Positions 10,704 to 64,000 of a DNA stretch of 64,000 bases are shown one piece after another (positions within the stretch are counted from its first letter, which is position 1; every line of letters starts with the position of its first letter). This DNA comes from a virus. The stretch spans positions 1 to 64,000 of the IMG/VR virus record IMGVR_UViG_3300045973_000434; one strand, written 5' to 3'. Both the position numbers and the translations under genes were made by a program. The notes below the pieces were generated by a model. The model ran no database searches and was not told where the DNA came from. It saw only the letters and a program-made list of their open reading frames with translations.

Positions 10704-10733
10704 ATAGGTTAGTAATAATTAAAAACAAATATT

Positions 10734-11515: not shown

Positions 11516-11543
11516 TGTAACTTTTTTATAAGTTATACGTATA
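11516..11543 (+). promoter_or_regulatory. promoter-like motif TGTAAC-N16-CGTATA (copy f)
   Basis: Exact match, 32 nt upstream of the ATG at 11576. Confidence 0.6.
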
Positions 11544-11575
11544 AGTATATAGTTGTAAAATTAATAAAATAAAGA

Positions 11576-11872: not shown

Positions 11873-11883
11873 TAAGCAAAAAC

Positions 11884-13754: not shown

Positions 13755-15804
13755 AATACATGTCGTAAAAGAAACAAACGCTGACAAATTTAGACCGGCA
13801 GCTTTAAAATTTGAAAAGAATAATTATTATACTTCAGCCCCTCCTGGGACCACAGCGTTCATGGAGTTTTGGGATGAGGAATTAGGCAGGTGTATTCATG
13901 GATATACTACACCAGATGGGGAGTACATAACAGGGTACTTCTATTTTTATTTAAACTACTCTCGTATTATAAAGACGGAGGAAGTTAAAAAAATGCAACC
14001 CAATGGTAAAATGAAAACCATTGTACGAAGACTTGAATCTTTCCCAAGGTATTACGATTACGATAGAGCTTATTTCGAAGCAATTGAAGAAGCTGAAGTT
14101 AATGGTAGACACCTTGTGGTTATCAAAAAAAGGGGTGCAGGGTATTCGTACAAAGGAGGATCAATGATGTGTAGGAATTTTTATTGTATTCCTAGGTCAA
14201 AATCATATGCTATAGCATCAGAAGCAGAGTTCTTAACAAAGGACGGACTGCTTACAAAAGCTTGGGAAATGATGAGCTTCATTGACGTTAACACTGCTTT
14301 TGGTAAGAAAAGACAGAAAAAAGATACAGCCATGCATAAGCGAGCTTCTTATGTAGTGGATGATGATACATATGGAATCAAGTCTGAACAAGGCTGGGGT
14401 TCTGAAATTATGGGTGTTAGTTTGAAAAACGACGCTCAAAAAGCTAGGGGAAAAAGAGGTAAATTAATTCTATGGGAGGAAGCTGGTAAGTTTCCAAACT
14501 TAAAAGAAGCGTGGCAGATTGCTAGGCCGTCTGTAGAAGACGGTACAGTTGCTTTCGGGTTAATGATAGCATATGGAACTGGTGGTACAGAAGACGCTGA
14601 CTATGAAGGTTTAAAACAATTGTTTTATGAACCGGATGGGTATAACGCCCTCCCAATTGAAAATGAATGGGACGAGAGTGCAAGCGGCACAGCCTGTGGA
14701 TTTTTTGTACCTCAGTACTATAACATGGAAGGTACTGATAAATTTGGTATAATAGAAGAAGGTAGGAAGTTTATGGACGAGAATGGTAACTCTGATATTG
14801 AGTTTACCAAGAAATATTGTCTAATAGAAAGGGACAAGATTATCAATAGTTCTAGTGATAAAACCTCTATAGATAGGTATATTGCTGAACGTCCTTTCAA
14901 TCCACTTGAAGCTACTCTACAAATACATGGTAATATATTCCCTAAAAAAGATTTAATACGGCACTTAGCCGCGATAAGAAACTCTGAAAAACTAAGGGAT
15001 TTTAAACAAGTTGGTGATTTATACTTTGATTCAAACGGCAAAGTAAAATGGGAGATATCTACTCATTTAAAAGATTTAACTAAATATAGATTGGGCCCAG
15101 GGGATGATCCTAGCGGTGCAATAGTTATTTGGGAACACCCGGCTGAGGACATCCCTTACGGCCTATATATAATAGGTTGTGACCCTTATGATCACGATCA
15201 ATCAGGTACTAACTCTTTAGGCTCTGCAATTGTATATAAAAGATTTCAAGGATTTGAAGAATACTATGATTTACCAGTTGCAGAATATACTGGTAGGCCA
15301 GACACAGCAGATGAATTTTATGATAAAGTAAGGTTACTATCTGTTTATTTTAATGCAAAGATATTATATGAAAACGAAAAAAAGGGTTTGTTTGATTATA
15401 TGTCTAGGAAAAATTGTGAATACCTTTTAGCTGATCAACCTGATATCATCAAAGATATTGTTAAGGATAGTACAGTTAAAAGAGGCAAGGGAATACATAT
15501 GGTAGCTGGTATTAAAGATTGGGGAGAAGGTGCAATCAAAGACTGGTTAATAACTGAATATGCTCCAGGTAGACGTAATCTAACAAAGGTTTTTTCAGAA
15601 CCCTTACTGGAAGAACTTATTGCTTATAATACAAGTGGTAACTTCGATAGAGTGATGGCCTTCATGATGGTTATTATTTATATCAGAGAATTACATCACG
15701 TAACTGTGAAACAAAAAAGGGAGTTCGAAAAGAAATCATTATTCCGGGATAAACTATTCGAACTTGATAATGACAATTATTTTAATAAATTTAAATCAAT
15801 TTAA
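13741..15804 (+). CDS. terL: terminase large subunit (687 aa)
   Basis: It has a Walker-A-like KKRGAGYSYKG, a Walker-B-like KLILWEEAG, and a nuclease-domain Asp cluster IIGCDPYDHD. Size and position directly upstream of the portal gene fit TerL. Confidence 0.8.
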   Translation: MKTYKIHVVKETNADKFRPAALKFEKNNYYTSAPPGTTAFMEFWDEELGRCIHGYTTPDGEYITGYFYFYLNYSRIIKTEEVKKMQPNGKMKTIVRRLESFPRYYDYDRAYFEAIEEAEVNGRHLVVIKKRGAGYSYKGGSMMCRNFYCIPRSKSYAIASEAEFLTKDGLLTKAWEMMSFIDVNTAFGKKRQKKDTAMHKRASYVVDDDTYGIKSEQGWGSEIMGVSLKNDAQKARGKRGKLILWEEAGKFPNLKEAWQIARPSVEDGTVAFGLMIAYGTGGTEDADYEGLKQLFYEPDGYNALPIENEWDESASGTACGFFVPQYYNMEGTDKFGIIEEGRKFMDENGNSDIEFTKKYCLIERDKIINSSSDKTSIDRYIAERPFNPLEATLQIHGNIFPKKDLIRHLAAIRNSEKLRDFKQVGDLYFDSNGKVKWEISTHLKDLTKYRLGPGDDPSGAIVIWEHPAEDIPYGLYIIGCDPYDHDQSGTNSLGSAIVYKRFQGFEEYYDLPVAEYTGRPDTADEFYDKVRLLSVYFNAKILYENEKKGLFDYMSRKNCEYLLADQPDIIKDIVKDSTVKRGKGIHMVAGIKDWGEGAIKDWLITEYAPGRRNLTKVFSEPLLEELIAYNTSGNFDRVMAFMMVIIYIRELHHVTVKQKREFEKKSLFRDKLFELDNDNYFNKFKSI

Positions 15805-43275: not shown

Positions 43276-44187
43276 ATGATTTATAAAACAACAAGTGTAA
43301 AAAGAGTTATTGCAAAAGTATTTACTGATCTTGATCTACAAGAAGGTGAACATAGAATAGCAGATATGATTGAGTGGGCTGGTGAAGCTCTTGAAAAGAT
43401 AGGAGCATTTCCTTCTTTTGAAAATAAAATTACTGGTAGAGATGGCGATCCTCTTCTACCTCTTAATAATTATATAACTGCTTTACCTTGTGACTTTCAT
43501 ACAGTTATACAAGTTTCATTTTCTACTTCTGCAGATGGTCCTTTTTATCCAATGAGATATACAACTGGTAACTTTGATATGGGAAATCAAACTCCTACAG
43601 TAAGTGATAAAGCTGATCCAGTTCCTTCAACAGCTAATATTGTTATGTTAGCAATGACTTTATATGATTGGGATTATGATACTGCTTTAACTAGGGTTAA
43701 TTCAGATCCTTTACTTAAGTCTAAAATGAAAGCCATTTTAAATTTAGGTACAACTAAAATAGATCAAGTTGGTAATCAACAACCTTTAGTAACAGATTAT
43801 GTATATATGATTAGTTCTAGCTATTTAAAAACTAATGTTAGAGATGGTTATATAATGATGGCTTATCAAGCAGTTCCTACTGATGATGAAGGATACCCAA
43901 TGATACCAGATGATGCAGACTTCTTAGAAGCCATCTATTGGTATATTACAATGAAATTATTATATCCTCAATGGAAACAAGGAAGTGTAAGAGATCAAGT
44001 ATATTATGATGCTAGACGTTCTTGGAATTATAATTGTAAGAAAGCATACGGTAATGCTATGATGCCGAACATCGATCAGTTAGAAAGTATAAAAAATAGT
44101 TGGCTTAGATTAGTACCAGAAATTGAAGAACACGCTACTGGATTCTCTTACTTAGGACAAAGACAACGCGTTTATAATCAACAATAA
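43276..44187 (+). CDS. tail-module protein, unknown function (303 aa)
   Basis: ATG ORF. Confidence 0.55.
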   Translation: MIYKTTSVKRVIAKVFTDLDLQEGEHRIADMIEWAGEALEKIGAFPSFENKITGRDGDPLLPLNNYITALPCDFHTVIQVSFSTSADGPFYPMRYTTGNFDMGNQTPTVSDKADPVPSTANIVMLAMTLYDWDYDTALTRVNSDPLLKSKMKAILNLGTTKIDQVGNQQPLVTDYVYMISSSYLKTNVRDGYIMMAYQAVPTDDEGYPMIPDDADFLEAIYWYITMKLLYPQWKQGSVRDQVYYDARRSWNYNCKKAYGNAMMPNIDQLESIKNSWLRLVPEIEEHATGFSYLGQRQRVYNQQ

Positions 44188-47100: not shown

Positions 47101-48023
47101 AATTAGTACTTGGTACAGGTGGTGTATTAGACAGATATGATTATATATCTCAAAGAGTAGGTTGTAAAGATAAGTTTACTGTAGTTAGTTCTATTGTTGG
47201 TGTGTATTGGTTTGATAGGTTATCTAAGTCTTTATATAAACATGGTAATAATCTATCTAACTTAACTAAGACAAAGTATATACAGTCTTATATGACTACT
47301 ACATTAGATAATGAATATGTAGCTATAGCTCATTCAGATACTAGTAATGATGAAATATTATTCACTTTCTTTAAGGAAAATGAAACAAATGGCTTCACTA
47401 TTTCGTTTAATGAACCAATAGATGCCTTTGTGTCATTCTATGGTTTTGTTCCTACAATCTACATACCTTATCAACATCATTACTTGACAACAACAAATAG
47501 TTACTACAGCGATAGTGATGTAAATAGAAACTACCTATTCCTACATGATAGCAATCTAGGGGATAGGTGTTATTTTTATGCACTGGCTGACGGACAAGCT
47601 ACAAAGTATGTTGATTCTACTTTAGAACTTTTGTTTAATTCTGAGTATGAGTATGTAAAGGTGTTTGATAGTATTTTCTATACTTCTAATGCTTTCTCAA
47701 ATCAAGCTGAGATATATTCAAATACTTTTAAAACAGTACAGTGTTATAATGATTTTCAAAACACCGGTGAAGTTGATTTAATACATAAACGTAATATAGA
47801 ACGTAGGGAAAGAGAATGGACGTTTAATGTACCTAGGAATATAGTTAATTCTAGTGTAAGTAATAATCCAAACATATTCCTTGATGTAGATAAGACTCAA
47901 TTATTCAAGGAACGAATGAGAGACAGATACTTAATTGTATATTTAACATATCATAACGATGGTTCATACGATAGGTTTATTGTTTCTAACATAGGTTTAA
48001 AATATAGGGCTAGCATAAGATAA
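44190..48023 (+). CDS. large tail structural protein (1277 aa)
   Basis: Long ORF with beta-rich composition in the tail block just upstream of the ejection-protein candidates, which is where crAss-like phages encode large tail-barrel/muzzle-type proteins. Confidence 0.6.
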   Translation: MTKAVINSFTDAMNKDIDKALMSNKAYLDAQNFRMVTTKGKSTGALETIKGNKLINVNTIVAGQFIIGSCEVRDTLVLFTTNNTSTTPNGGRSMIYSMKVNLETEVGTTPVVLYDDQNNNNSGYLNFSVAHPIKTIGKYETPNIQKVYWTDGYNNLRYVDIAKKLTITGLPYTTDDYMSVLKFEFLPEFASSKPVLVDIVSGSLRSGMVQYAYQLYRLNGAETAISPVSDLIHIVSDNDFATTTLNYKGDSESKETGKGCKLLINNSNGGYNRIRLIRVHYPTLNSIPTISICNESEISTAAGSVYITDTGNVLGDLTIDEFNIASTELFKCQDIASKDNRLFAANITKSEFTIGNTWDARAVRFRSLDNTAYVFDTPYSATGQVVINNTLSNWISSYDLDHNGINGFNDPDNDDNANYQFKYQANGSTVGAEGLNVKIDFETEAVLLDNSNSYTTFSTTSTASSYTNFASPWRDGSLSWQRDEVYRLFVVWQNAIGQTSEPQWIIDLRMPSLHDADFTNSSSANVQPSILGDLVTLSNEVYISVLRPRIYFKSKPTGAVSCQIYRVKRDRSDRSVITQGLVVPTKANGGRLYPDQADVVIPSSDSINLIKLVSPEINITRNVSKRNNDYIEFATYFATGLLTNDSVGPLGAYHRRIDKLVENTRVPYTGNVKSNITEILSVSPATEDSATSGVTIDSKSYCNFNQDGSHTYSKGCSGMLISYSNNNWFGEGNPFVIVNYRSNIANSQYGGSTYEDRSINVSIPCSDVITNINTWYSIKGGDTFINYFDVSTLLVDLSRTQLSSSVSETVFVPLESSINCDLRHDTSNAHASYAISVAVMRQEYLGTHQVVFDTNPGTLTMTYEQDKDLYLYNTVYSQETMVQNAIAFGIDTVLETEFDTMIKVSAIKTNGEMSDSWSKFGINDFLEVDSTYGPINALHLFNNSLYYWQDRAVGIASVNERSLINDKSSAQLVLGTGGVLDRYDYISQRVGCKDKFTVVSSIVGVYWFDRLSKSLYKHGNNLSNLTKTKYIQSYMTTTLDNEYVAIAHSDTSNDEILFTFFKENETNGFTISFNEPIDAFVSFYGFVPTIYIPYQHHYLTTTNSYYSDSDVNRNYLFLHDSNLGDRCYFYALADGQATKYVDSTLELLFNSEYEYVKVFDSIFYTSNAFSNQAEIYSNTFKTVQCYNDFQNTGEVDLIHKRNIERREREWTFNVPRNIVNSSVSNNPNIFLDVDKTQLFKERMRDRYLIVYLTYHNDGSYDRFIVSNIGLKYRASIR

Positions 48024-48643
48024 TGGCAATTAAGATTAAAAAAGGAAACGTTGGTAAGTTTACAGCTTACAAGAAACGCACAGGTAATACTACATCACAA
48101 GCACTTCATTCGAAGAATGCTCATGTTAGGAAGATGGCTAACTTTGCACGTAATGCAAAGAAGTGGAAACATGAAGATGGTGGTTTAGTACAATATGAAC
48201 TAGGTGGTACACTATCATCATTAGGTTCTGTAGCAAGTACAATACCAACACCATGGACACAAATAGGCGGGGCTGCTTTATCTATGATAGGTGGCATAGT
48301 TGCGGGTAACGAACAAAAGAAAGCTGCTGCTGAACAACTTAGGCAACAGAGTGTACAACAAGCCGGTTTAGCGCAAGCTAACGTTATAAATCCATTTACT
48401 CCTACTTTTGCAAATGGTGGTGTGATACCAGGTATGATGCCAAACGTAGAAGTTGAAGGTGGTGAAGTATTACAAGGTACAGATGGTACTTTAGCTTCGG
48501 TTAAAGGACCTAAACATTCAAAAGGTGGTGTAGACTTGTTTATGGAGAATGGTGGTAGAGTATTTAGTGATAAGATAATAAATCCAGAAACTGGTAGGAC
48601 ATTTGCAGAAGATGCAGAACGATTAATGAAACAAACAAAGTAA
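48023..48643 (+). CDS. virion/ejection protein candidate (206 aa)
   Basis: ATG ORF with a TAATG junction, a basic N-terminus and a Gly-rich body. Confidence 0.5.
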   Translation: MAIKIKKGNVGKFTAYKKRTGNTTSQALHSKNAHVRKMANFARNAKKWKHEDGGLVQYELGGTLSSLGSVASTIPTPWTQIGGAALSMIGGIVAGNEQKKAAAEQLRQQSVQQAGLAQANVINPFTPTFANGGVIPGMMPNVEVEGGEVLQGTDGTLASVKGPKHSKGGVDLFMENGGRVFSDKIINPETGRTFAEDAERLMKQTK

Positions 48644-50037
48644 TGGCAACATTAATAGAAAAAAATACAAAGAAATTAGTTGAGCACAAATTAAACATGT
48701 TGTTTGCTAAACAGCAGCAACTTAATAATAATGCAGGTGGTCAACAGAAAATGGAAGGTGGGGGTACCAGTAGGATTAATGGTAGACCTGGTACTTATAA
48801 TAGTCAGGGGATTCCACTTGAATTACCTAACGTTGGTGTTACTGGTTATCGTAATAGGTTTCCACAATATACCGGTATGGGTATAGATTTTATGAGAAAT
48901 AATTATAACTCAAATATTAATCCAGCTTTACTAGGTAATGTAAATATAACAGGTACTAATAATAGAACGGCTGATCCAAACGCTCAGAATATACATAGTG
49001 CAGGCGAAGCTCAAGTAGTTGGTAAACAACCATCTCCTAGTGATTTTTGGGATAACACTGGATTAAATCCATATAATTTTTATAATAACAAACAAGCTTC
49101 TAGTTCTGCACCAGTTAATATGGCAACAGATCCTAGGTTTGGTACTAATTTTAGTAATGTACCAGAAGCTACTTCTAATGCTAAATTATTAAAACAACCT
49201 AGCGATCCTTCGTTAATTCCAAATGCACCCGGTATACAAGATTTAGGTTTTGATCCAGCTATGAATATGGCTACTGATCCTCAATTTGGTAGTTTTGAAC
49301 AGTCGTTAGAAGCATATTCTCCTGCTGTTCCATCATTATCAAGTTTGAATAACACTTCACCGAACTCAAAACTAGGCACTAATGGCTTAGCTAAAGCACC
49401 TACTCCTGGAGGTTCGTCTGGTCCTAACTGGGGTAAGGTTGGTACATTTGCAGCTCAGATGGCACCGATGCTTTATAATTTAGGTAAAGGTTTACAGAAA
49501 CCAGATAAGGTAAAACCAAATTATAATCCATACGAAAGTAAGGTTAGGTCATTGATGGCTAATCGTAGATTTAATATCGATCCATTGCTTAATGCTAATC
49601 TAAATGCACAAGCAGTTTCTAATAGAAACATACGTAACACTGCTAATAGTAGGGGAGAATTAATGGGTAACTTAGGTGCTGCACAGAACTATAGAATGGC
49701 AGGCGATGCTGCTGCTTGGTCACAGAAGAATAACATGGACAATCAGTACATGGCTGAACAGGCTCAGATGGATGCTAACTTAGGTGGTAATAGAGCGCAG
49801 ATGGATTGGAATACTCAAACAGCTAATGCACAGAACAAAGCTGCTACTAATCAATTCTTAGGTCAATCTATGAATGACTTTAGTAAGTTTTCACAGATGC
49901 AACAGTTAATGGGCAATCAGAAAAACAGAGATGCACAACTTGCAAGTTTGTATCCAGACATGTACTCACAAATATATCAATTCCAACCTGCAATGCAAGC
50001 AATAATTAAAGCTGCAGGGAATATGAAAGGTATTTAA
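48643..50037 (+). CDS. Asn/Gln/Pro/Gly-rich low-complexity virion protein candidate (464 aa)
   Basis: ATG ORF with a TAATG junction. MATDP(R/Q)FG occurs twice. Confidence 0.5.
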   Translation: MATLIEKNTKKLVEHKLNMLFAKQQQLNNNAGGQQKMEGGGTSRINGRPGTYNSQGIPLELPNVGVTGYRNRFPQYTGMGIDFMRNNYNSNINPALLGNVNITGTNNRTADPNAQNIHSAGEAQVVGKQPSPSDFWDNTGLNPYNFYNNKQASSSAPVNMATDPRFGTNFSNVPEATSNAKLLKQPSDPSLIPNAPGIQDLGFDPAMNMATDPQFGSFEQSLEAYSPAVPSLSSLNNTSPNSKLGTNGLAKAPTPGGSSGPNWGKVGTFAAQMAPMLYNLGKGLQKPDKVKPNYNPYESKVRSLMANRRFNIDPLLNANLNAQAVSNRNIRNTANSRGELMGNLGAAQNYRMAGDAAAWSQKNNMDNQYMAEQAQMDANLGGNRAQMDWNTQTANAQNKAATNQFLGQSMNDFSKFSQMQQLMGNQKNRDAQLASLYPDMYSQIYQFQPAMQAIIKAAGNMKGI

Positions 50038-52412: not shown

Positions 52413-55400
52413 ATGTTTGAACAAAACATGGATGGTGTTACTCCAGTTAGGAGATTGACATCACAAGACATAAGTAGCCCTTTAGGTGCTACAGAAACAG
52501 TAAGTCCAGAAACTGGATTAACAGGGGATAGCAAATCAGCAAGAAGACTAAGTAGTAAAGAACTTAGTGAAGGATTCATGAGTGATACTGGTGGCATATC
52601 CCCTATTATTTCTAATACCCCTGGTGGTATTAAGAGTACTGAAAAAATTATTGGTGAAGGTGAATATCATCCTGAATTAGGAACTGTTTATAATCAACAG
52701 TTATTACACGAACGACAGACTGCAACAGGTCAGTTTGCAAATGCTTTAATACAAGCTGGTGCTCAAATAGTTGGGCAAAGTATACAAGGTGCAGCTTATA
52801 TAGCTGATATTGACTCTGGTGCTAGATTATCAAATGATGCTGAGGCAGATTTTGGTAATGCGGTTGCTGATTTTGGTTCCAAGATAATTCAAGGAGCTGA
52901 AGAGTTAGCACCTATATATGTTGACCCATATAAGGAAGGTAAATTCGATCCAGGATCATGGTCTTGGTGGATGAAAAATCTACCATCTGCTGCATCTAGT
53001 GTTGCACTTATGATACCTGCTTTGGGTGCTACATCATTAGTGGAGATGTTACCTGGGGTATCTAAATTACTTGCTGGTTTAAGTCAAGAAGGAGTTGTTG
53101 CTGCAAGAGGCTTTACACAAGCTATATTCTCTAGAAAAGCAGAGAGTATGATGGAAGCAGAAGGTGTTTATAAAGAAAATTATCAGAGAGGTAGACAATC
53201 TGGTTTATCAGAAATTGATGCAAGAAAAGCAGCATCATTAGCTGCATCAAACACATATAATAAAAACTGGGCATTATTAGTTCAAGATATACCTCAGTAT
53301 ATGTTGTTAAATAAATTAGGGGCTTTAGCTAAAGGTGGTAAAGCAGGTGAAAAGATAGCTGCCGAAGAAATGCATCCTAAGATTGCAAACTGGATGGGTA
53401 AAGGACAACTTGAAACTACATTAGGTAAAGTTGGTGCAATTGCTACAGATATGGCTGGTGAAGCTGGTGAAGAGATTTATCAGTACTTACTTAATGAACA
53501 GTCTAATACAATGGCTGCACATCAAGCTGATCCTGATAAGAATAAAACAAGTAGTCTATTACAAACATTAAAAGATCATTATGATGACGGTGATCTTTGG
53601 ACCTCTGGTTTTTGGGGAGCTGCTGGTGCTGGTATAATGCAAGCTGGGTTTGCTGGAATGAATCATAAAGCTTTACAAAAAGCTGCTAATGAGCAGTTAG
53701 ATACTGTTACTAAATTTAGCACAGGTTTAAATCAGGCTAATAAAGAATATGCAGCTGCTCTTGCAGAAGGTGATCCTATTAAAGCCGAACAAGCTTTTCC
53801 ATCTCTTATATTCAATACAACATTAAGAAGTCATTTAAACGGTTCTCTTAAGTATACAAGAGAGATGCTTAATGAACTATCTAAAGGAACTTCTCCAGAA
53901 CTATATGCTAAATGGGGTATTGATCCAGAAACACAAGGTAGATTAAAAGACGATCCTGATTTCTTTAAAAAGATTAAAGATGGTATGGATAGGGTTGTAG
54001 AACTCTACGACAGGTATGGTAAAGAGAATAGAAGTAATAAAAATATTAAGGATAAAGATAAAGAGCCTAATGCTCAGATAATGGCTAATACTCAATTCTT
54101 AATGGAGAACACTGAAAAGAGTATTCCTACTATTGAGAAGAGAAGAGACGAGGCTTGGGGTAAAATAGAGAAGGTTGAAGAGTTATCTGCTCCTAAGCAA
54201 GCTATCTTAGGTCTTGAAGCTAGGAACCGTGCATCACAGAAGTTGTTAGATCATTTTGATAAGACTTTGAAAGAGCGTGGTGATAAGATGGGTGAAGTTG
54301 AAAAGAAAGAATTAGAACTTGCTATTGAAGAAACAAAACTTGATATAGTAAAGACTAATAGTAATGACGATCCTACTAAACCTGGTATTAAACAATATCA
54401 AGCTGAATTAAGAAAGATACATAAAGATGATTTTGAACAAGCTGATAAAGATAATACACCATTACCTGAAGATCAAATAGATGCTTTTAGAAAAGAAGTT
54501 GGTAGGTTAAAAGCTGCTAATGAATCTATGAAACAGTTAACCGCACGTATGAAAAAACTACGTGAAGGTAAATCTGTATTAGATCTTCAGAAAGAAGAAG
54601 TAATGGATCAGTTGGGTATCAAACCTGACGAACGGGATGAAGACGCAATACAACCTGATGATACTGTACAGTTCAAAGATGAAACTGGTGCAGACCAATA
54701 TGGTAAAGTGGTTGGTGTAGAAGAAGCTTTAGATGAAAATGATACATCAGATCCTAAATACGTAGTTCAACCAGTTGATCCTAAAACACATGAACCAGTT
54801 GGGGAACCGGTGGTTAAAGGTGCTTTAGATTTATTCTTAGATGAGAAAGTAGATGATAGGATTAATGAAGAGATTGCTCCTGATGGTTTAACTGATGTAG
54901 AACAAGTTCAGTTAGATGGCATAACAGAAGAAGAGTCTTTAATAGAGTCTGGTCAAAAAGTAATGCAAGGAGTATCTAAACTATCTTATTCTGATTTTGA
55001 TTCTAAAACCGGTATATATAATAATAGAAACTCTGAGTTCTCTAAAGTTATAAGTGATCCTAATACTAGTTTCACTGGTTCAAAAGCTTATTTCTTTTTA
55101 AGCGATGCTGTAAAGTTACAACCATTCGTTGACAAATATGCAACAGCAAAACAGAAACCAATCTTTAAAAAGTTCTTAGATGGTAAGAAGTTAACTGATC
55201 CTGAAATTGATATCTTAGTTGAGGCAATATCTGGTGATAAGTTTAATGACTTAGTTGATATGTTACCAATATCTGTAAGAGCTACAATAGCTGGTAAAAC
55301 ATTTGAAGAAGGTTTATATTTACATAGTTCTGGTTTTAAATACATTGCTATACCTAAATCAATTCGTAGAGGTAAGAAAGCGGCCATTGATGCATATCGT

Positions 55401-58400
55401 GCAAAGGAGTATTTGAAGTCTAGGGAGAATAGGGCAGTCCTACTTAAGAAGTTATTCAAAAGAGAAGAGATATACTCTATAGGTTTAAATAGGAGTAGAG
55501 GTGTTCCTAATGTTGCTAATAAAACATTACCTGCAAAGGAAAGAAATAGAAAGTTAACTGCAGCACTTGGCAAAGAAGCTAGTAAACTTAAGCTAGCAAT
55601 AACTGTATCAGATGAGGTTAGTCCTGACAAAGCTTCATTGCGTGATGCTAAGGATAATGTAATACCTGGTACTGAAAGAATAATGAATAACCCTGGTAAT
55701 GTATTTGCTATGGTTATTAATGAGACTATGGATGGTAGTGCATATCCACTTAAACTTAATCGACCTTTCATAAGTAGAGAGCATGCTGAGATATTATTTG
55801 ATGCTTTTGTAATTGTTGGTAGAGCTAAGATTGCTAAACGTAAGAATGGCAAACCGGTAAATGCTTACAATGTAAAGTTTACTGCTGAGGATGATAGAGT
55901 TAAAGGTTTATCTGCTGGTGAAGTTATAGACTTACTTGTTAACAACGGTAGGGAGATGACTGAGCCAAACACCGGTCGTTTTAAGAAACGTAACATCAAA
56001 CCAGGTCAAGCAGAGATAATGGCTAGCAAGCGATTATACGTTGGTATATCTGGTAAACGTGTTGTATTGGTATATGGTAATGATCCTAAAACCGGTGCAG
56101 CAAATACTATAGACTTAACAAGCAGTGCTGACATACATCAAAATAAAGAAGCATTTTTACAGTGGCTTACTACTAATAAAAGGTATGCGATCTACTTGAG
56201 TAGTAAGAAATTAAAACTGTCCTTAAATGGTGATTTCTTAAATAAGAAAACATTTACTATAGGTAAGACCAATACTATTTCAAGGAAAGGTACTGATTCA
56301 TATAGTAAGTTTATTATAGACAATCAGTTAGTTGAAACTGATATAGTTAGGGATGATAATGGTAAATTGTTTCATGATCCTGTTATAAATTTAAATATAA
56401 CAGATAGGTATGGTAAGGTTACAGACCAAACTATTAAAACAAAAGCACAATCTAAGTATACTCCTAAGACTCATAAAGTTGTAAGGGAGAAGCCAACGGT
56501 ACAAGATGTTCCTGTAACTAAACCTGAGATAACTATAGATGATGTAGAGGACGCAAGGGCGTTCAATTCTACTCAGACTGTTGAACAGATTGAAGAAGAG
56601 AAACATGGTCAAGATGTTCCTGTAGAAGAAGAAACTGCTTACAAAAATAAGTTTTCTACTTCTAAAGAAAGAGCTGTTTATCATGGTGGTTCAGAGTATG
56701 CTGCACCTGAAGCTAAACAAGTGTTTATAGACTTATCAAATATAATAGAGACTGCTATAAACGCTAAGAAAACGTTTGATGAAACCTCTGCTGAAGTTAA
56801 AAAGTTCTTGTACACAGAACAACTTAAAGTAGGTTCAAAAGGGTCTTTAGCTAATAAGATATTATTTGAGTACCTTAAAGATAGGTTTGCTGGTAAGACA
56901 CAACGTTCTTTATTAGAAGAATATAAATATGGTATATCAAAACAAGATACTTCTAGTGCTACTAAAACTACACCAGCTATTAATTCTAATGATGAAATAG
57001 GTGAAGTAGAAGAAGATAATGAAATAGTAAAAGCAGAAGAAACTGCTCCTATTTTAGAAGGGGGTAATCAAGAAGAAGAACCTACTGAAATACCAAAGGT
57101 AAGAAGTCTCAATGATATAATGGGGAATTTTACTAAGAAGAGTGGTAATAAGCTAAGCAAAGTTGCTAATTCTGAAAATGGTTATGAGATTGCTGATGTA
57201 CATAAAGACATACAGTGGGCATATGATACAGTTGGTATATCAAAAGAAGATTGGGTTATAAAGAATAAGTTTGCAGATCTACTATATAAAGGTAGACGTA
57301 ATTTTGCTTTGTATAGTCAATCGGCTATATTAATACTAGAACAAGCTGAGGTAGGTACAGTGTTTCACGAAGCTTTTCATAGAGTTAGTTTAGGTTATTT
57401 CACTAAAGCAGAACGTAGTAAGTTATATAGGGCTGCAAGACAGATATATAAACTTGGCGTAGATACTCATACTGATAAGCAGGTAGAAGAGTTTTTAGCT
57501 GAGAAATTTGAAAATTATGTATTAACCAATGGTACTAGAAAAGTACCTGGTGCTATAGAAAGATTCTTTCAACCATTATTAAACTTCATAAAGAAGATAT
57601 TTGGTGGTACAAAGTTAGATGAGAATGAAGTAGAGCAGTTATTCAGACAGATTAACGAAGGTAAATTTAAACGTAATAAAGTATTAGCTGAGAATAGAGA
57701 CTTACTTGAACAAGGTGAGTATGCTAAGACTATGATTTCTGGTACTACTTTTGATAACTTAAATACTAGAGAAGATGTGAAAGACTTGATCAAAGGTCTT
57801 ACTGAAAAACTATTTGATGTTAGTAACGTAGCTGATATAAATAGGATCAGTAGGCTTAATCATGGTTTATTAGTATCTTCTATAGAAGAATTGATATCCA
57901 ATCTTACCGATCATATAAATGAGGAAGGTGTTGCTGAAGATGAGGTGATACAAACTACACATCTTAGGGATATGTTCTCAGAGGTTCTAGGTGTTAAAGA
58001 TCCTGAAACTGGTTTATATGATACTTATTCTAGGTTGATTAGACCTCAAATAGATTCCTTTATGTTATCTATGGGTATCAAACAAACAGGTATAAAAGAA
58101 GCTTCTGATGACTATCTAATGGACGAAGAAGGAGACGAAGGTGCTGCTACTGAAAAACAATTTGGTGAGAATGTTGGTAAAATAGGTGGTGATTATTTCA
58201 AAGCTTCTTATGAACGTAATAAGAAAGAAACAGCTCTTGCAAATATAAAGTTTATGATAGCTACCTTACATGAAGTTAGTTATGTAGATCAAGAAACAGG
58301 TGAAAGAGAATTTGAACGTAATCCATTAACACGCATGGGTAAGTTTGTAGATTTTGGTACTGCTTGGTCTAAGATATTCAATTCATTATACTGGATTAAT

Positions 58401-61400
58401 AATTCAGCTGATATGATTGAAGAACTTAAAGTATTAGCAGAACAACAAAATTATTCTCCATTTGCTGAGTTAGCAGAACGTCTTGAGAATGCATCAGAGA
58501 TGGTACGTAATCAGTTCTTTGTAACAGTTAGGTCATCTAAACATGATTTTATTAACTTCTCTGCTTATAATACAGGTGGTTTTGGTTATAAGTTTACTAT
58601 AAATAAATCAGCTTTTAATGAAGCATTCTTCTCTGAGGTATCTGTTTGGAACGAACTTATGTTCAATGATGATAAGATAACAAGGAGTGAAGTAACTAAG
58701 ATAAAAGGACAGACTGGTTATATATACCGTAGTTATTTTAGGAAAGAGTTTTTTACTGCTATTGGTGAAGACTATTCTGACTTACTAGATAGTATATTAG
58801 TTGCTAAAGATAAACTTGGTTATGTCAAACCTTCTGAGAAAGAAGCTTTCATAAACAAAGAAGTGTCTAAAGCAGTAGATCAGATATTATTCTTATTAGG
58901 TAGGTTTAATATAGTAGTTGATACTCAAACAATAAATCGTTTAATAAAACAGAAACAAGGTGAAACTGTAGAGAATGATTTAGATGCTGTATATAACTAT
59001 GTAGATACTAGATTATCTATGTTGATGGCTACCAATACGTCTGCACATGCTGCTGAACAAGAGGAACAGATCAATCGTAAGACCATGAGTTTATATAGGA
59101 ACGAAGAAGTTCTTAATATATCTAGAGCTTATATATTAGAGCATCCTGAAAAGATAGATGATATGCAGCTTGGTCCAGACAAGAATAAATATAACACCTT
59201 CTCTGAAAACAACCATGCTACTGAAGTTGCTAATAGAATACAACACGAACCTGGTTTTGTAGAAAATAAAAGAAGTCTTATCTATAACAAACGTAGTCGT
59301 TTATTAAACGACATGATTCCTAAATCTAACGATCCTGAAGAAATAAAAAGAGCAGAAGATAAAAGGAAGATGTTTGGTTTGAGAACCTTTAGTTATCTAC
59401 AAGAGAAAAACACCGGTGATAATGGTCGTGGGTTCTTAGAGATAACAGAATTAGAAGATTACTTAATAAAGTATTCTGCTATGTTTAATCTAACTAACAC
59501 AGACGAATCAGAACAGTTGTTACCATTACCTTCTCTTCCTAGAAAGACATATTTCTTTATGTCAGGAGTAAGGAAGTTTGATAGAGTTATGGCAGACTTT
59601 AAAGGTGGTAAGATTAAGTTTACTAAAGAAGTTCTAGATTATTTCTATGATCAATATTTAGATGAACTCGAACGTATACAAGAAGCTAATAGAGTGTTAG
59701 CAGAATATCACGCAGCTACTGGCCAAGAGAAAGAAGATCTTAAAAACAAGTTAGTAAAGAACTATCACTACGCAACTAATAAGTTTGACTTTAGTAAAGG
59801 TAATGCTTTTGATTTTATTCATTTTAAAGGGTTTAGTAAAACTAAAATGGGTAAGATTAACTTCGATAAGAAAATAACAGATGTTTTAAATAGTAGAGTT
59901 AAAGAAGAGTTAGAGTATGCAAATAGAGTTGGTATCATATCATATGACACTGATAGTAAAGAGTATGCTCCTGGTATGTTAGATAGGACTCACACAGAAG
60001 AATATTCTACTAAGTTTGATGAGAGTGATGATATAGGTACTAGAGGAGCTATTGCAGACTTTGTACTTAACTATTCTATGGCTACAATTGAAGCTGAGAA
60101 ACTATTCTTAGCAGACCCTGCTTTCTTTGCTAGAAACCAAGAGAGTAATGAGGTATTTGATGATATATATAAAAGATGGTTTGGGGTAGGTTCTTCAGGT
60201 GAGAACTTTGCAGAAACTACAGAATCAGATCCAAGTACAACATATAGGACTTTAGTAATAAATACACAGAAGTTTCAAGCACCTTTCTATGATGTTCTAT
60301 ATGATAGACATGTGGAATTATGGAAAGCATACTTAACCGAAAACAATAAAGAACAACTCACAGCTGATAAGATTGATGCTATGGCTAAGAAATTAGCTAA
60401 GAACAGATTGTCAGAATATGAGAAAGTAGATCCTTCTGATGGTCAGGCTTGGATTAGTCCTACCATGTATAAGAAGATGATTGAAAGAAGTGGTATGTGG
60501 ACTCCAGAGTTACAAGCTGCTTTTGAAGTACTTAACTCAGATAAAGAGTTGTCTCCTGCAGAAGAAATAAAACTATTAAGTGTTGTTTTAAATCCACAGA
60601 AAACTGCTTACTTTGGTACACAAGAGAACATGGGACTTGATATGCCGATATATGATAAGATGTCTATGACCATTCTCTTTAAGAGATTAGTTAAAGGCAC
60701 TCATATAGAAGATATCTTAGATCGTATGGAACTTACGGGTAGGTATGCCGATATGGAAGGATTAGAAAAAATAGATGTAATCAACTTCGATAGTGCTATT
60801 AAGGTCGGTGGTAGGAGAGGTTATGAATTGTTTACTGATAAGGATAAGAGAGATCAGATAAACGATTTTACAAATGTTTCTACTACAGAACAGTACTGGA
60901 AGAACTTACGTAAACAGCAGGTTACAGATCCACACGATGATTTCACAGAACAGACGTTGGGTTCACAGGTTTATAAAATAGCTAGTTCTAATATTATAAA
61001 AGACAAACCATATGGTAATTACTCAACCGGTATGGATATGCTTAACGCTCTTACAAGATCAAGAGTAGCTGTAAGTAACAACGGTCGTCATAATATAGAG
61101 GCTTCGTTAGGTATTAAAGATGGTAAAATATCAAACGCTAAGTTAATTCAACTACTTAGAAAAGATGCTGAGAAAGCTAAGAAGCCAGAAGACTTTATGA
61201 GGTCTCTTAAAATAGACCCTAAGACAGGTAGAAACTATCTTGAACTAGATGCATTTCCTGATAGGAGATGGATATACTCCAGACTTATGAGATTGGTTAC
61301 TGGTAACACAGTTGACTTAGTAACACCTGGAGCACAGTTAATACAATCATCAGACTATGGTTTTTCAAAGAAAGATTATGATAGTGAATTAGGTTTTAAC

Positions 61401-64000
61401 ATACTTGAACAAGGTTCTAGTACTACCTATCAGATGGAATGTAAGGTTTCTATTAGGACGTTTAAACATCTAATACCTAATTATGAAAAACTAACTCATG
61501 ACCAAAGAGTTAAAGCATTGGCTGGTTTAGAACTATCTTTGTTAGGTTATCGTATTCCTACACAGGGACAAAACTCTGTAGTTAGTTTAACTATAAAAGA
61601 GTTCTTACAAGACGAAGCTGGTGATGTTATTCATCTTCCGTTAGCGTTTACAACATTAACAGGATCTGACTTTGACATAGATAAACTATTTACTATGTTT
61701 CATAACTATGAAAGAAATGAAAAAGGTAAGTGGGAAAGGGTTATGTTTAGTGAAGGTACTAACGAAGAGGCTGTACAACAGAGGTATGATAAAAAAGTAG
61801 AGGAGCTGTATAACATCTATAAAAATGATGAAAGTGTTGTAACCCCTGCTGTCTTTGAAAAACTAAAAAGTGTTGGTGCTACTGCTTCTAGATATATGAC
61901 TGATTCTGATTTTGCTGAAACTATTTCTTTAATAGCAGAAGAGGATAAAGCTAGGATGGCTAATTATAGAGGTCAGTATATACAGACTGAACAACATTAT
62001 AATGAAGCTACAGAAACTATTGAAAAGAAAGAACTTTATAGTGAACTTACGTATTTATCTGATCTTATGGATGACATAAGACAAAAGAATCAAATTAAGA
62101 ATGTAATACGTGAAAAAGCAATTCCTATAAAGAAGGCAGCGTTGTTGGCTGCTAAGAAGATACAAGACATTAGTGAGTTTGCTAATCTTCCAATAGAAGA
62201 ACAGAATATAAGTGCTGCTAATAAGAATAGAATCATAGATGTATTTCATACTGTTATACGTGATAGTAAGCATTATTTAAGTACTTCTCAGCCATTGGGT
62301 GGTGTAACAAACCAGCTAAGAGCAAGAGCTGCTAGGAATGAACGAATTGAAAACGGTGGTAAAGTAAAATCTTTAGACGCATTAGGTTCAACAGTTCCTA
62401 GGTTTCAATCAGAAACTAAGTTTAAATTCATGACATCTTCTAAAGGTATCGGTCCTTTTGCTTTGAACAACGCACACCATTCCTTTACACAGATGGTTGG
62501 CTTAAAAATGAAAACTAAGGTTCAGTATGGTATGCAAAAGAACGGTGTTGTTCCATTGGATTTAATAATAGGGGATGATAAAGTTTATATAACTGACTGG
62601 TTATCTGCTATGATAGATGCACACGTCGATGCTGTAAAAGACAACTATATAACAAAACTTAACGTCAACAACTCTACTTATGGTGTAGTTGCTTTGATGT
62701 TACGATTAGGTCTTGGTATTAAAACATTTGACTTTGTTTCTCAGCCTGCTATAAAAGAGTATGCTAGAGAATACTTTAGGTTGGGTGGTAGATTAAAACA
62801 AGATGAAGATTCAGCTGATGATGGTACTATTGCAGATGCAGCTTTTAGAGTGGTGTGGAATAGGTATATGACTAAACTTCATTTAGATGAAGGAGAGGAT
62901 GTAAATTTAAAGGATGATGATATGTACCTAGACTTTACTGATCTTATAAACGATGAGAAGCAGATGGAGAAAGACATGGACCCAGCACTAAGTAATAACG
63001 AAGATAGGAATAAAAGACAGTTAAATATGTTATTACACTTCAGAAGGATATTCAAAGATTCTGAAGATCTTAACAAACTTGTTCTTGAATGTCGTGTTGA
63101 TACTAAGAAGATTGGTGCTACTCCTAGTGAACAAAGATTTGCTTTAAACAAACTAATGGAATTAGAAGAAAAGGGTAAATTTCCAGGACTTGATAGGCTT
63201 ATAAACAGTAGAGGTGAGTTTATGCAAAATGGTACAATGTTAGCACCTATGTTAAAGAACAGCCTTATATACTTACAAGGAATGCTTGAGAATAGTACTG
63301 TGTACGGTTCTAAGGGATTTGATACATTATTTTGGGATATGGCTTTCTCTATACCTGCTAGTGCAACTATGAGAGCTTCTAGTGTGAATAATATAGTAGA
63401 AGAAATGTTTAGTTATTTTTCAGGTGAATTCTTTGGTAATCCAGAACATGGTATTGGTGTTAACAAAGCATACTTAGAGAAATTATTATTAAATGGTCCT
63501 ACTTCTGTCTTTGGATTACTTTATAAAATACGTAAAAAGAATTACAAACTATATGAAGAACTTAGTAAGAATAAAATGCTTTCTAGTCTACGTGTAGATA
63601 GTAAACCAGGTATTCCACTTGAAACATATTTAAGGGTCCCCCCTTCATTTACAGCAAATAAATGGGACAACGATGATAAGATAGACGGGTTCTATGATTT
63701 ATTTACTCATCCAGAATCTGAAGTTAGAGAATTAGCCAGAGCTTTATATTTATACTCTTATTATAGTACTGGTTTTAGACATAGGTTCCGTGGTTATGTT
63801 AAGCATATACCAGGTTCAGTACAGAAAGAAATAAATATGTTCAACGTTAAAACTAAAAAATATAATAAAGTTAGTTTTAATGAGTATCTTTATAACTTAG
63901 TTAGAGAATTGAATGACGGTCATAGTGCAGGTCCTAAGTACTTACAATCTATGAAACGTGATATATTTAAGAATAACTGGTTTAATAAATGGTTTGTACC
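52413..64000 (+). CDS. giant multidomain virion protein containing a zincin-like HExxH domain and a two-barrel RNA polymerase module (at least 3862 codons, 3' end outside window)
   Basis: I translated the frame from the ATG at 52413 codon by codon and met no stop up to 64000. The ORF track lists no plus-strand ORF here, as expected for an ORF with no stop in the window. HEAFH is at 57366-57380. YRIPTQGQNS...VIHLPLAFTTLTGSDFDIDKL is at 61548-61690. Confidence 0.85.
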   Translation, partial: MFEQNMDGVTPVRRLTSQDISSPLGATETVSPETGLTGDSKSARRLSSKELSEGFMSDTGGISPIISNTPGGIKSTEKIIGEGEYHPELGTVYNQQLLHERQTATGQFANALIQAGAQIVGQSIQGAAYIADIDSGARLSNDAEADFGNAVADFGSKIIQGAEELAPIYVDPYKEGKFDPGSWSWWMKNLPSAASSVALMIPALGATSLVEMLPGVSKLLAGLSQEGVVAARGFTQAIFSRKAESMMEAEGVYKENYQRGRQSGLSEIDARKAASLAASNTYNKNWALLVQDIPQYMLLNKLGALAKGGKAGEKIAAEEMHPKIANWMGKGQLETTLGKVGAIATDMAGEAGEEIYQYLLNEQSNTMAAHQADPDKNKTSSLLQTLKDHYDDGDLWTSGFWGAAGAGIMQAGFAGMNHKALQKAANEQLDTVTKFSTGLNQANKEYAAALAEGDPIKAEQAFPSLIFNTTLRSHLNGSLKYTREMLNELSKGTSPELYAKWGIDPETQGRLKDDPDFFKKIKDGMDRVVELYDRYGKENRSNKNIKDKDKEPNAQIMANTQFLMENTEKSIPTIEKRRDEAWGKIEKVEELSAPKQAILGLEARNRASQKLLDHFDKTLKERGDKMGEVEKKELELAIEETKLDIVKTNSNDDPTKPGIKQYQAELRKIHKDDFEQADKDNTPLPEDQIDAFRKEVGRLKAANESMKQLTARMKKLREGKSVLDLQKEEVMDQLGIKPDERDEDAIQPDDTVQFKDETGADQYGKVVGVEEALDENDTSDPKYVVQPVDPKTHEPVGEPVVKGALDLFLDEKVDDRINEEIAPDGLTDVEQVQLDGITEEESLIESGQKVMQGVSKLSYSDFDSKTGIYNNRNSEFSKVISDPNTSFTGSKAYFFLSDAVKLQPFVDKYATAKQKPIFKKFLDGKKLTDPEIDILVEAISGDKFNDLVDMLPISVRATIAGKTFEEGLYLHSSGFKYIAIPKSIRRGKKAAIDAYRAKEYLKSRENRAVLLKKLFKREEIYSIGLNRSRGVPNVANKTLPAKERNRKLTAALGKEASKLKLAITVSDEVSPDKASLRDAKDNVIPGTERIMNNPGNVFAMVINETMDGSAYPLKLNRPFISREHAEILFDAFVIVGRAKIAKRKNGKPVNAYNVKFTAEDDRVKGLSAGEVIDLLVNNGREMTEPNTGRFKKRNIKPGQAEIMASKRLYVGISGKRVVLVYGNDPKTGAANTIDLTSSADIHQNKEAFLQWLTTNKRYAIYLSSKKLKLSLNGDFLNKKTFTIGKTNTISRKGTDSYSKFIIDNQLVETDIVRDDNGKLFHDPVINLNITDRYGKVTDQTIKTKAQSKYTPKTHKVVREKPTVQDVPVTKPEITIDDVEDARAFNSTQTVEQIEEEKHGQDVPVEEETAYKNKFSTSKERAVYHGGSEYAAPEAKQVFIDLSNIIETAINAKKTFDETSAEVKKFLYTEQLKVGSKGSLANKILFEYLKDRFAGKTQRSLLEEYKYGISKQDTSSATKTTPAINSNDEIGEVEEDNEIVKAEETAPILEGGNQEEEPTEIPKVRSLNDIMGNFTKKSGNKLSKVANSENGYEIADVHKDIQWAYDTVGISKEDWVIKNKFADLLYKGRRNFALYSQSAILILEQAEVGTVFHEAFHRVSLGYFTKAERSKLYRAARQIYKLGVDTHTDKQVEEFLAEKFENYVLTNGTRKVPGAIERFFQPLLNFIKKIFGGTKLDENEVEQLFRQINEGKFKRNKVLAENRDLLEQGEYAKTMISGTTFDNLNTREDVKDLIKGLTEKLFDVSNVADINRISRLNHGLLVSSIEELISNLTDHINEEGVAEDEVIQTTHLRDMFSEVLGVKDPETGLYDTYSRLIRPQIDSFMLSMGIKQTGIKEASDDYLMDEEGDEGAATEKQFGENVGKIGGDYFKASYERNKKETALANIKFMIATLHEVSYVDQETGEREFERNPLTRMGKFVDFGTAWSKIFNSLYWINNSADMIEELKVLAEQQNYSPFAELAERLENASEMVRNQFFVTVRSSKHDFINFSAYNTGGFGYKFTINKSAFNEAFFSEVSVWNELMFNDDKITRSEVTKIKGQTGYIYRSYFRKEFFTAIGEDYSDLLDSILVAKDKLGYVKPSEKEAFINKEVSKAVDQILFLLGRFNIVVDTQTINRLIKQKQGETVENDLDAVYNYVDTRLSMLMATNTSAHAAEQEEQINRKTMSLYRNEEVLNISRAYILEHPEKIDDMQLGPDKNKYNTFSENNHATEVANRIQHEPGFVENKRSLIYNKRSRLLNDMIPKSNDPEEIKRAEDKRKMFGLRTFSYLQEKNTGDNGRGFLEITELEDYLIKYSAMFNLTNTDESEQLLPLPSLPRKTYFFMSGVRKFDRVMADFKGGKIKFTKEVLDYFYDQYLDELERIQEANRVLAEYHAATGQEKEDLKNKLVKNYHYATNKFDFSKGNAFDFIHFKGFSKTKMGKINFDKKITDVLNSRVKEELEYANRVGIISYDTDSKEYAPGMLDRTHTEEYSTKFDESDDIGTRGAIADFVLNYSMATIEAEKLFLADPAFFARNQESNEVFDDIYKRWFGVGSSGENFAETTESDPSTTYRTLVINTQKFQAPFYDVLYDRHVELWKAYLTENNKEQLTADKIDAMAKKLAKNRLSEYEKVDPSDGQAWISPTMYKKMIERSGMWTPELQAAFEVLNSDKELSPAEEIKLLSVVLNPQKTAYFGTQENMGLDMPIYDKMSMTILFKRLVKGTHIEDILDRMELTGRYADMEGLEKIDVINFDSAIKVGGRRGYELFTDKDKRDQINDFTNVSTTEQYWKNLRKQQVTDPHDDFTEQTLGSQVYKIASSNIIKDKPYGNYSTGMDMLNALTRSRVAVSNNGRHNIEASLGIKDGKISNAKLIQLLRKDAEKAKKPEDFMRSLKIDPKTGRNYLELDAFPDRRWIYSRLMRLVTGNTVDLVTPGAQLIQSSDYGFSKKDYDSELGFNILEQGSSTTYQMECKVSIRTFKHLIPNYEKLTHDQRVKALAGLELSLLGYRIPTQGQNSVVSLTIKEFLQDEAGDVIHLPLAFTTLTGSDFDIDKLFTMFHNYERNEKGKWERVMFSEGTNEEAVQQRYDKKVEELYNIYKNDESVVTPAVFEKLKSVGATASRYMTDSDFAETISLIAEEDKARMANYRGQYIQTEQHYNEATETIEKKELYSELTYLSDLMDDIRQKNQIKNVIREKAIPIKKAALLAAKKIQDISEFANLPIEEQNISAANKNRIIDVFHTVIRDSKHYLSTSQPLGGVTNQLRARAARNERIENGGKVKSLDALGSTVPRFQSETKFKFMTSSKGIGPFALNNAHHSFTQMVGLKMKTKVQYGMQKNGVVPLDLIIGDDKVYITDWLSAMIDAHVDAVKDNYITKLNVNNSTYGVVALMLRLGLGIKTFDFVSQPAIKEYAREYFRLGGRLKQDEDSADDGTIADAAFRVVWNRYMTKLHLDEGEDVNLKDDDMYLDFTDLINDEKQMEKDMDPALSNNEDRNKRQLNMLLHFRRIFKDSEDLNKLVLECRVDTKKIGATPSEQRFALNKLMELEEKGKFPGLDRLINSRGEFMQNGTMLAPMLKNSLIYLQGMLENSTVYGSKGFDTLFWDMAFSIPASATMRASSVNNIVEEMFSYFSGEFFGNPEHGIGVNKAYLEKLLLNGPTSVFGLLYKIRKKNYKLYEELSKNKMLSSLRVDSKPGIPLETYLRVPPSFTANKWDNDDKIDGFYDLFTHPESEVRELARALYLYSYYSTGFRHRFRGYVKHIPGSVQKEINMFNVKTKKYNKVSFNEYLYNLVRELNDGHSAGPKYLQSMKRDIFKNNWFNKWFV

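Follow-up and report, generated by a model that had tools for sequence, protein, structure and literature searches.

A predicted gp66-type RNA polymerase fused behind a gp67-like and a probable zincin-like module in a giant protein of a divergent crAss-like phage

A giant open reading frame with a gp66-like polymerase core

We analysed a 64,000-nucleotide stretch of viral DNA (the window; positions 1 to 64,000 of the IMG/VR virus record IMGVR_UViG_3300045973_000434), towards the end of which lies a giant open reading frame (ORF) of at least 3862 codons (52413..63998, + strand). The frame is free of stop codons from 52392, immediately behind a stop, to the window's final complete codon, and its first ATG is at 52413. 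A segment of this ORF, 61548-61700, had been singled out in a reading made from the nucleotide sequence alone (the sequence-only reading) as the catalytic double-psi beta-barrel (DPBB) of an RNA polymerase with a DFDID metal-binding loop. Translation of the + strand of the segment gave YRIPTQGQNSVVSLTIKEFLQDEAGDVIHLPLAFTTLTGSDFDIDKLFTMF, which reproduces the protein text quoted in that reading and confirms it as real, and YRIPTQGQNSVVSLTITKEFL lies within the same translated stretch; the opposite strand of 61548-61700 is crowded with stop codons and has no open frame. Counted from the ATG at 52413, the first tyrosine of the segment is residue 3046 and DFDID occupies residues 3086-3090 (nucleotides 61668-61682), and the residue numbering of the sequence-only reading (~3046-3095) is thus recovered. 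All elements of the ORF described below are on the + strand.

Comparison of the whole ORF with all PDB chain sequences (phmmer) revealed one real match, 6vr4_A (E=4.6e-41), with query residues 2293-3150 aligned to chain residues 598-1442 and query residues 3264-3487 to chain residues 1484-1702. PDB entry 6VR4 is gp66, the DNA-dependent RNA polymerase packaged in virions of the crAss-like Cellulophaga phage phi14:2 (Drobysheva et al., bioRxiv 10.1101/2020.03.07.982082). The same chain was matched by a 300-residue local query (phmmer, E=3.9e-14), with YRIP.QGQ and GSDFDIDK in matching columns, and by a profile of the second-barrel (DPBB-A) segment searched against PDB sequences (E=1e-28), while the phi14:2 gene itself (g066) was matched by tblastn (E=2e-41). 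In the alignment, GYRIPTQGQ...GDVI...TGSDFDIDKLF falls onto GYRIPNQGQ...GDTI...TGSDFDIDKMY of gp66; the numbering of chain 6vr4_A equals native gp66 numbering plus 14, and the aligned motif is gp66 1361-DFDID-1365. The polymerase core, residues 2293-3487 (59289..62873), is homologous to gp66 by both this sequence match and the structural comparison given below.

The first, beta-like barrel of the core (DPBB-B) spans residues 2729-2834 (60597..60914), with six strands in the structural model (model positions 130-235) and the lysines K2730, K2749 and K2797. It is followed by a helical connector at residues 2835-2973 (60915..61331), which is mostly helical in the model (254-366), is aligned with the gp66 Connector and is anchored by Q2852 and G2973 opposite gp66 Q1116 and G1235. 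The second, beta-prime-like barrel (DPBB-A; residues 2974-3109, 61332..61739; model strands 375-510) holds the flagged segment and, within it, both a YRIPTQ loop (residues 3046-3051, 61548..61565), aligned with gp66 Y1321-R1322-I-P1324-N-Q1326, and the predicted catalytic metal-binding loop DFDIDK (residues 3086-3091, 61668..61685), aligned with gp66 1361-DFDID-1365 and K1366. Further downstream lie a bridge-helix equivalent at residues ~3328-3358 (62394..62486), where K3336, G3345 and A3350 correspond to gp66 K1537, G1546 and A1551, and a trigger-loop equivalent at residues ~3392-3430 (62586..62702), where V3405, D3406, D3410 and T3422 correspond to gp66 V1611, D1612, D1616 and T1628. In gp66 the Connector has been assigned to residues 1095-1238, the bridge helix to 1529-1559 and the trigger loop to 1598-1636 (Drobysheva et al.).

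Conservation of the core was read from a 123-sequence alignment that includes gp66 and gp26 of the phage cr4_1. Twelve positions are invariant and all are kept in the window protein: K2730, K2749 and K2797 (gp66 K1012, K1027 and K1065, before the Connector), Q2978 (Q1240), Y3046, R3047, P3049 and Q3051 (Y1321, R1322, P1324 and Q1326), and D3086, D3088, D3090 and K3091 (D1361, D1363, D1365 and K1366). Three near-invariant residues are likewise kept, namely N3272 (conserved at 0.99; gp66 N1478), K3336 (0.96; K1537 in the bridge helix) and D3406 (0.98; D1612 in the trigger loop). The spacing between YR.P.Q and D[FY]D.D is 40 residues in nearly every one of the 150 top-scoring family representatives, and the metal loop follows the pattern D[FY]D[IV]D across representatives, with DFDID in the window protein; isoleucine or valine at the fourth position of DFDxD is a published rule of the family (Drobysheva et al.). 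Homology to gp66 thus extends from the first barrel through the connector and second barrel to the bridge helix and trigger loop, and the window protein keeps all family invariants.

An AlphaFold2 (AF2) model of residues 2600-3500, built from a 33-sequence alignment (mean predicted local distance difference test score (pLDDT) 81.1; predicted template-modelling score (pTM) 0.78), contains a pair of barrel-like regions rich in beta strands, with a mostly helical connector between them, and one long helix (model positions 730-763) in the place of the bridge helix. Around the flagged segment the order of elements is a strand ending at Y3046, the RIPTQ loop, strands 3056-3065 and 3072-3075, the DFDID loop and a strand at 3091-3096. 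When this model was compared with the PDB by Foldseek, 6vr4_A was recovered with E=3.8e-30, probability 1.00 and a template-modelling (TM) score of 0.64 over 920 columns, and no other PDB chain was significant; the weak tail consisted mostly of beta-prime or largest-subunit chains of cellular RNA polymerases and of the phiKZ and AR9 phage polymerases (non-virion RNA polymerases, nvRNAPs). Foldseek comparison with the predicted viral structures of BFVD gave 55 matches at E<=0.001, several of them nameless; every match with a named organism is a giant protein of a crAss-like phage or an uncultured virus. The barrel fold, as judged from the secondary structure of the model and its structural match to 6vr4_A, is a predicted one.

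We conclude with high confidence that the flagged segment is the catalytic, beta-prime-like DPBB of a single-chain, two-barrel DNA-dependent RNA polymerase of the crAss-like virion type (gp66 family). The proposal of a catalytic barrel with a DFDID loop is upheld by the sequence match to gp66, by the Foldseek match to 6vr4_A and by a second barrel-like region, beta-rich at residues 2729-2834; the additional proposal that a DxDxD loop in a giant virion protein marks crAss-like RNA polymerases agrees with a published family feature, which is matched here. The window protein shares with gp66 the DFDIDK loop, the YRIP.QGQ element, their 40-residue spacing and a gene position at the end of the virion module, but it is only ~21-25% identical to gp66 and carries P3076 where gp66 has Y1351, among other substitutions. 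It is a divergent copy of a known, crystallised enzyme family and not a new kind of enzyme. Deposited phage polymerases are no more than 28% identical to it (57% at best for the large terminase, TerL), so it adds a lineage to the family alignment. The assignment firmly places the window in a Crassvirales genome, whose virion RNA polymerase is encoded by the giant ORF.

By analogy with the biochemistry of gp66, in which each aspartate of DFDID is essential for Mg2+-dependent RNA synthesis (Drobysheva et al.), D3086, D3088 and D3090 would coordinate the catalytic Mg2+, the invariant lysines K2730, K2749 and K2797 of the first barrel would complete the active site where the two barrels meet, and the bridge helix and trigger loop would drive translocation and nucleoside triphosphate (NTP) loading. 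gp66 is delivered into the cell, where it transcribes phage DNA and early genes (Drobysheva et al.). In the same way, the polymerase encoded in the window would be packaged in the virion in a self-inhibited state, ejected with the DNA and used to transcribe early genes independently of the host polymerase.

A gp67-like module and a probable zincin-like module precede the polymerase

Three parts are fused in the giant ORF: at its N-terminus a gp67-like module, next a probable zincin-like peptidase module and, behind both, the gp66-like polymerase. The N-terminal module, residues 79-1286 (52647..56270), was detected with a family hidden Markov model (HMM) against phi14:2 gp67 (E=3.4e-37); hmmalign mapped gp67 residues 41-1273 onto window residues 79-1286, and 156 of the 1024 match columns are identical. 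With BLASTP the first 1500 residues gave no match to gp67, and the relationship is visible only with the family HMM.

The second module (residues ~1595-1765, 57195..57707) contains HEAFH at residues 1652-1656 (57366-57380) and EEFLAEKF at residues 1692-1699 (57486-57509). All of 114 family members have H1652, E1653 and H1656, and 99% have E1693; this conserved glutamate lies ~36 residues after HExxH within an EEF.AE.F helix and is the putative third zinc ligand of a gluzincin. An AF2 model of residues 1570-1790 (mean pLDDT 65, with a core near 90) consists of an N-terminal helix, three strands, the HExxH helix, one intervening helix and the glutamate-bearing helix; the zincin core topology has been described by Iyer et al. 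2017 (PMC5512222). A family profile of the module, searched against PDB sequences, aligned on both motifs with PPEP-1/Zmp1 (HExxH and EEFFAESF) at a weak E=0.04, matches to the Pfam families ATLF and Tox-MPTase4 stayed below threshold, and Foldseek comparison of the module model with the PDB gave nothing meaningful (best E not below 0.66). A zincin-like peptidase fold is likely for this module but not proven. The module resembles PPEP-1, anthrax lethal factor and the zincins of injected polyvalent proteins (PMC5512222) in its HExxH motif, glutamate helix and predicted core topology, and resembles the polyvalent proteins also in being a zincin-like domain embedded in a giant ejected phage protein; statistically, the resemblance is weak (the profile, Pfam and Foldseek results just given).

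A zincin has previously been attributed to gp65, a protein encoded downstream of the polymerase (Drobysheva et al.). We considered and rejected the identity of the HEAFH module with this gp65-type zincin: gp65 and cr4_1 gp27 carry HEIMH and HEILH, lie downstream of the polymerase and are not matched by the HMM of the HEAFH module.

The module is present in the window protein and lacking in both gp66 and gp67 of phi14:2. In that phage, gp67 and gp66 are separate genes and gp66 is a free-standing protein of 2180 residues, whereas the polymerase of the window is fused behind the gp67-like and HExxH modules. In the Kehishuvirus 'tikkala', the HExxH module forms the C-terminus of a separate 2310-residue gp67-like protein, with the catalytic polymerase on the opposite strand. 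Kehishuvirus/crAss001-type phages (Steigviridae) share with the window the building blocks, that is, a gp67-like protein, an HExxH module and a catalytic RNA polymerase, but distribute them over a 2310-residue HExxH-ending protein on the + strand and a polymerase on the other, where the window has a single frame. Because the gp66 alignment covers only the part downstream of the HExxH module, gp67 is without the module and Kehishuvirus splits the chain behind it, we place the fusion junction just after the HExxH module. Fused forms of the crAss-like polymerase are already in the literature, which describes some phages whose polymerase is joined to adjacent virion proteins, with cleavage of these considered likely (Drobysheva et al.). 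Most giant crAss-like polymerase proteins, including that of the window, carry the zincin-like module, which the sole crystallised enzyme lacks.

Between this module and the polymerase core, residues 1915-1994 (58155..58394) are collinear with the Cleft-blocking region of gp66 (phmmer domain 1 against 6vr4_A). The alignment, which sets G1925 opposite gp66 G218, is weak alone (independent E-value 1.9), and a family HMM covering the wider region around residues 1915-1994 matched gp66 residues 101-327 at E=1.5e-15. In gp66 the Cleft-blocking domain (196-233), including G218, contacts the catalytic loop (Drobysheva et al.). The zincin-like module lies ~270 residues upstream of this putative Cleft-blocking element, at the junction of the gp67-like and polymerase parts.

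Possible release and activation of the polymerase

The most likely reading of this arrangement is a polyprotein or polyvalent ejection protein that would be cut or rearranged near the zincin-like module, freeing and activating the polymerase. That the internal zincin is itself the activation switch, which after assembly or ejection cuts the fusion and/or removes the cleft-blocking segment to yield an active early transcriptase, is a tentative proposal that we consider possible rather than probable. The conserved module at the junction is a candidate for the release or activation of the self-inhibited packaged polymerase, a question left open by Drobysheva et al. Whether it helps to process or activate the enzyme is the single lead from this locus that we consider worth following, and the one point that could advance the field.

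The protein could instead work as one intact giant chain without proteolytic release, like the ~3500-residue virion RNA polymerase of N4, in which case the HExxH module would act on the host (for example, on the envelope) or be non-catalytic. Fusions of 4000-6500 residues are the majority form in the family, N4-like virion RNA polymerases carry zincin-like domains within one giant ejected protein (PMC5512222), and digestion of peptidoglycan was considered for the crAss zincin by Drobysheva et al. On the other hand, the modules are separate genes in phi14:2 and Kehishuvirus and so can function as separate chains, the junction of the fusion directly follows the HExxH module, and cleavage of the fused forms is expected in the literature (bioRxiv 10.1101/2020.03.07.982082). 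We regard an uncleaved chain as a real though minority prospect beside the polyprotein reading.

Relation to cellular polymerases and weight of the assignment

Several observations weigh against assigning the segment to a DNA-dependent RNA polymerase of the gp66 family. The ORF is cut by the window end, and its C-terminal end lies outside. Pfam and PHROGs scans of the whole ORF gave only sub-threshold noise, neither library having a model that covers this polymerase; the DPBB-A profile retrieved gp66 only from PDB sequences, with no beta-prime chain at E<=10 and no QDE-1; the matches to beta-prime chains in the Foldseek comparison of the residue 2600-3500 model with the PDB were non-significant (E=0.08-3); and the DFDID loop is one of the less confident parts of that model (pLDDT ~64, model residues 481-490).

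The link to cellular enzymes was examined at the level of the segment itself. Against E. coli beta-prime, in the form quoted in the sequence-only reading, the 48-residue segment aligned collinearly over R.PT...DFD.D with z=3.3, a score equalled in 6 of 2000 shuffles. The motif-for-motif line-up with beta-prime that had been claimed thus stands as an order of elements, with which the model agrees, and falls short as a statistical match, with no profile support. The RNA_pol_Rpb1 and RpoC families are absent from the Pfam scan of the ORF at E<=1, and QDE-1 chains appear neither among the best 50 Foldseek PDB matches nor in the sequence and profile searches; of the three relatives against which a search had been advised, gp66 was therefore recovered, and QDE-1 and beta-prime were not. 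The loop itself, GSDFDIDK with isoleucine at position 4, matches neither the cellular NADFDGD motif, with glycine at that position, nor the DYDGD loop of the QDE-1 type.

The published similarity of gp66 and QDE-1 extends over 479 residues at 8.6% identity, below the detection of these searches, and gp66 has been superposed on both QDE-1 and the Thermus thermophilus polymerase (bioRxiv 10.1101/2020.03.07.982082); later structural comparisons are available (bioRxiv 10.1101/2022.12.01.518664). Because the sequence, profile and Foldseek links to beta-prime and QDE-1 are weak or absent, the connection to cellular polymerases runs via the gp66 structure, and the assignment of a beta-prime-type barrel rests on the published superpositions of that structure and on the later comparisons, not on the window sequence alone. 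Seen through gp66, the window protein would share with the beta-prime DPBB (NADFDGD) and with Neurospora QDE-1 the fold class, a three-aspartate loop after an R.PT-type element and the placing of the active site between a pair of DPBB domains. This comparison draws on the published gp66 superpositions, and the weak Foldseek matches to beta-prime chains lend it some support. It differs from them in lacking a significant sequence or profile match and in having isoleucine in place of glycine at position 4, and differs from beta and beta-prime in having both barrels in one chain, with the other beta and beta-prime domains undetectable. The enzyme is a single-chain two-barrel polymerase, and the label 'multisubunit-type' given to it in the sequence-only reading does not apply.

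Another ejected two-barrel polymerase is the tape-measure-fused virion polymerase of Thermus phage P23-45. As a separate observation, the DPBB-A profile aligned DFDiDK with DFDGD at residues 461-484 of 8h2n_A, the P23-45 tape measure protein, at a non-significant E=1.4.

The kinship with QDE-1, the closest cellular structural relative, raises the alternative that the polymerase is mainly RNA-templated or uses both templates, instead of being a DNA-dependent transcriptase. Beyond that structural proximity, gp66 prefers single-stranded templates; yet gp66 transcribes phage DNA and early phage genes (bioRxiv 10.1101/2020.03.07.982082). The absence of QDE-1 from the best 50 Foldseek PDB matches also speaks against the alternative. 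The life cycle of crAss-like phages is not known to include an RNA-templated step, and we consider a mainly RNA-directed or dual-template enzyme very unlikely.

A protein descended from a polymerase could also have kept the motif as a purely structural or ejection protein and lost RNA synthesis. The DFDID loop in the gp66 crystal has a conformation unable to bind Mg2+ and carries isoleucine for the universal glycine (bioRxiv 10.1101/2020.03.07.982082), and the polymerase of the window is embedded in a far larger virion protein, both of which would fit such a loss. But the catalytic aspartates, K3091, the three lysines and the bridge-helix and trigger-loop residues are all intact, conservation across ~2000 divergent representatives indicates selection on catalysis, and gp66 is active with the same DFDID motif, making loss of activity highly improbable in our judgement.

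The chance occurrence of DxDxD in a very large low-GC protein unrelated to polymerases, to which the presence of DFD.D in ~6% of shuffles of the giant protein (1192 of 20000) and the z-score of only 3.3 against beta-prime lend some colour, is refuted by the gp66 match over more than 1000 residues (E=4.6e-41), the fold match (E=3.8e-30) and the conservation of the motif, its 40-residue spacing to YR.P.Q and its flanking residues, and we give it a negligible probability. The DFDxD motif by itself is not significant in a protein so large; its surrounding context is decisive.

Relatives of the giant protein

To the family as a whole, the comparison contributes a set of positions that hold over ~2000 representatives: the first-barrel lysines, YR.P.Q, the D.D.DK loop and single bridge-helix and trigger-loop positions. 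An exhaustive HMMER search of 1.84 billion representatives returned 1991 relatives at E<=1e-3, of which 302 reached E<=1e-30, the proteins being mostly 4000-6500 residues long with the core at residues ~2200-3500. This exhaustive search was needed to find the family, as a word-indexed protein search with the 1200-residue core returned a single weak match, the protein P0001 (E=9e-11), and a scan of viral contigs with a 600-residue core fragment gave no confirmed relative. Among 50,697 phage records, tblastn matched 114, all from crAss-like or unclassified gut phages and at most 28% identical, and megablast of 58000-64000 against the phage records gave no match, so there is no close DNA relative among them.

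The closest relative is the metagenomic protein P0002 (4501 residues), which is 70% identical over the 1200-residue core and has the N-terminus and motifs of the window protein. It differs in being full length, with circularly permuted YpsA (cpYpsA) SLOG and RNase H domains past the point at which the window ends; judged from its length, ~640 residues of the giant protein probably lie beyond the window. In P0002 (residues ~4040-4500) and at the end of a further relative, P0007, the circularly permuted YpsA SLOG domain (PF12694) and RNase H (PF00075) score above Pfam cut-offs, and an RNase H on the ejected polymerase protein of relatives is a curious feature.

Among named phages, gp26 of cr4_1 (Suoliviridae, 4491 residues) has the same fusion architecture, with HEAFH ~1430 residues upstream of DFDID, is collinear with window residues 1556-3838 and is preceded by the same upstream genes, but it is only 27-28% identical to the window protein. 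The two also differ in coding: the giant gene of cr4_1 (L002, NC_055893; 4198-17673) contains 38 in-frame stops under table 11, which indicate stop-codon recoding, whereas the large genes of the window phage all read through with the standard code.

Homologous giant genes carry public labels as different as 'DNA helicase', 'exonuclease V', 'DprA-like DNA recombination-mediator protein', 'nuclear pore complex protein-like protein' and 'NTF2 domain-containing protein'. These labels disagree with one another and are misleading, and most of them are wrong where the polymerase part is concerned.

Genomic surroundings

Upstream of the giant ORF and on the same strand lie the large terminase TerL (13741-15804, E=3.9e-145), a CrAss_Ring_1 protein (43276-44187; PF24228, E=6.4e-83) and further genes for a portal, a major head protein, tail proteins and a virion structural protein. 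TerL is at most 57% identical to that of Crassvirales phages. Gene order is shared with cr4_1: the three ORFs directly upstream of the giant ORF correspond to gp24 and gp25 of that phage, and the giant ORF itself to gp26. On the basis of these upstream genes, the TerL identity and the shared order with cr4_1, the window is the virion module of a divergent crAss-like (Crassvirales) phage, and the polymerase gene closes this module, as it does in phi14:2 and cr4_1.

Scans of the window for tRNAs and Rfam families were both empty. The first part of the window, 1-13700, contains many short ORFs, on the minus strand up to ~7100 and on the plus strand thereafter, and six ORFs sampled from it had no Pfam match. 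At 48023-50037, two adjacent ORFs of 206 and 464 residues, whose start and stop overlap at 48643, match different parts of the single cr4_1 gp24 (744 residues; L002 170-2404), which suggests either a split gene in the window or a fused gene in the relative.

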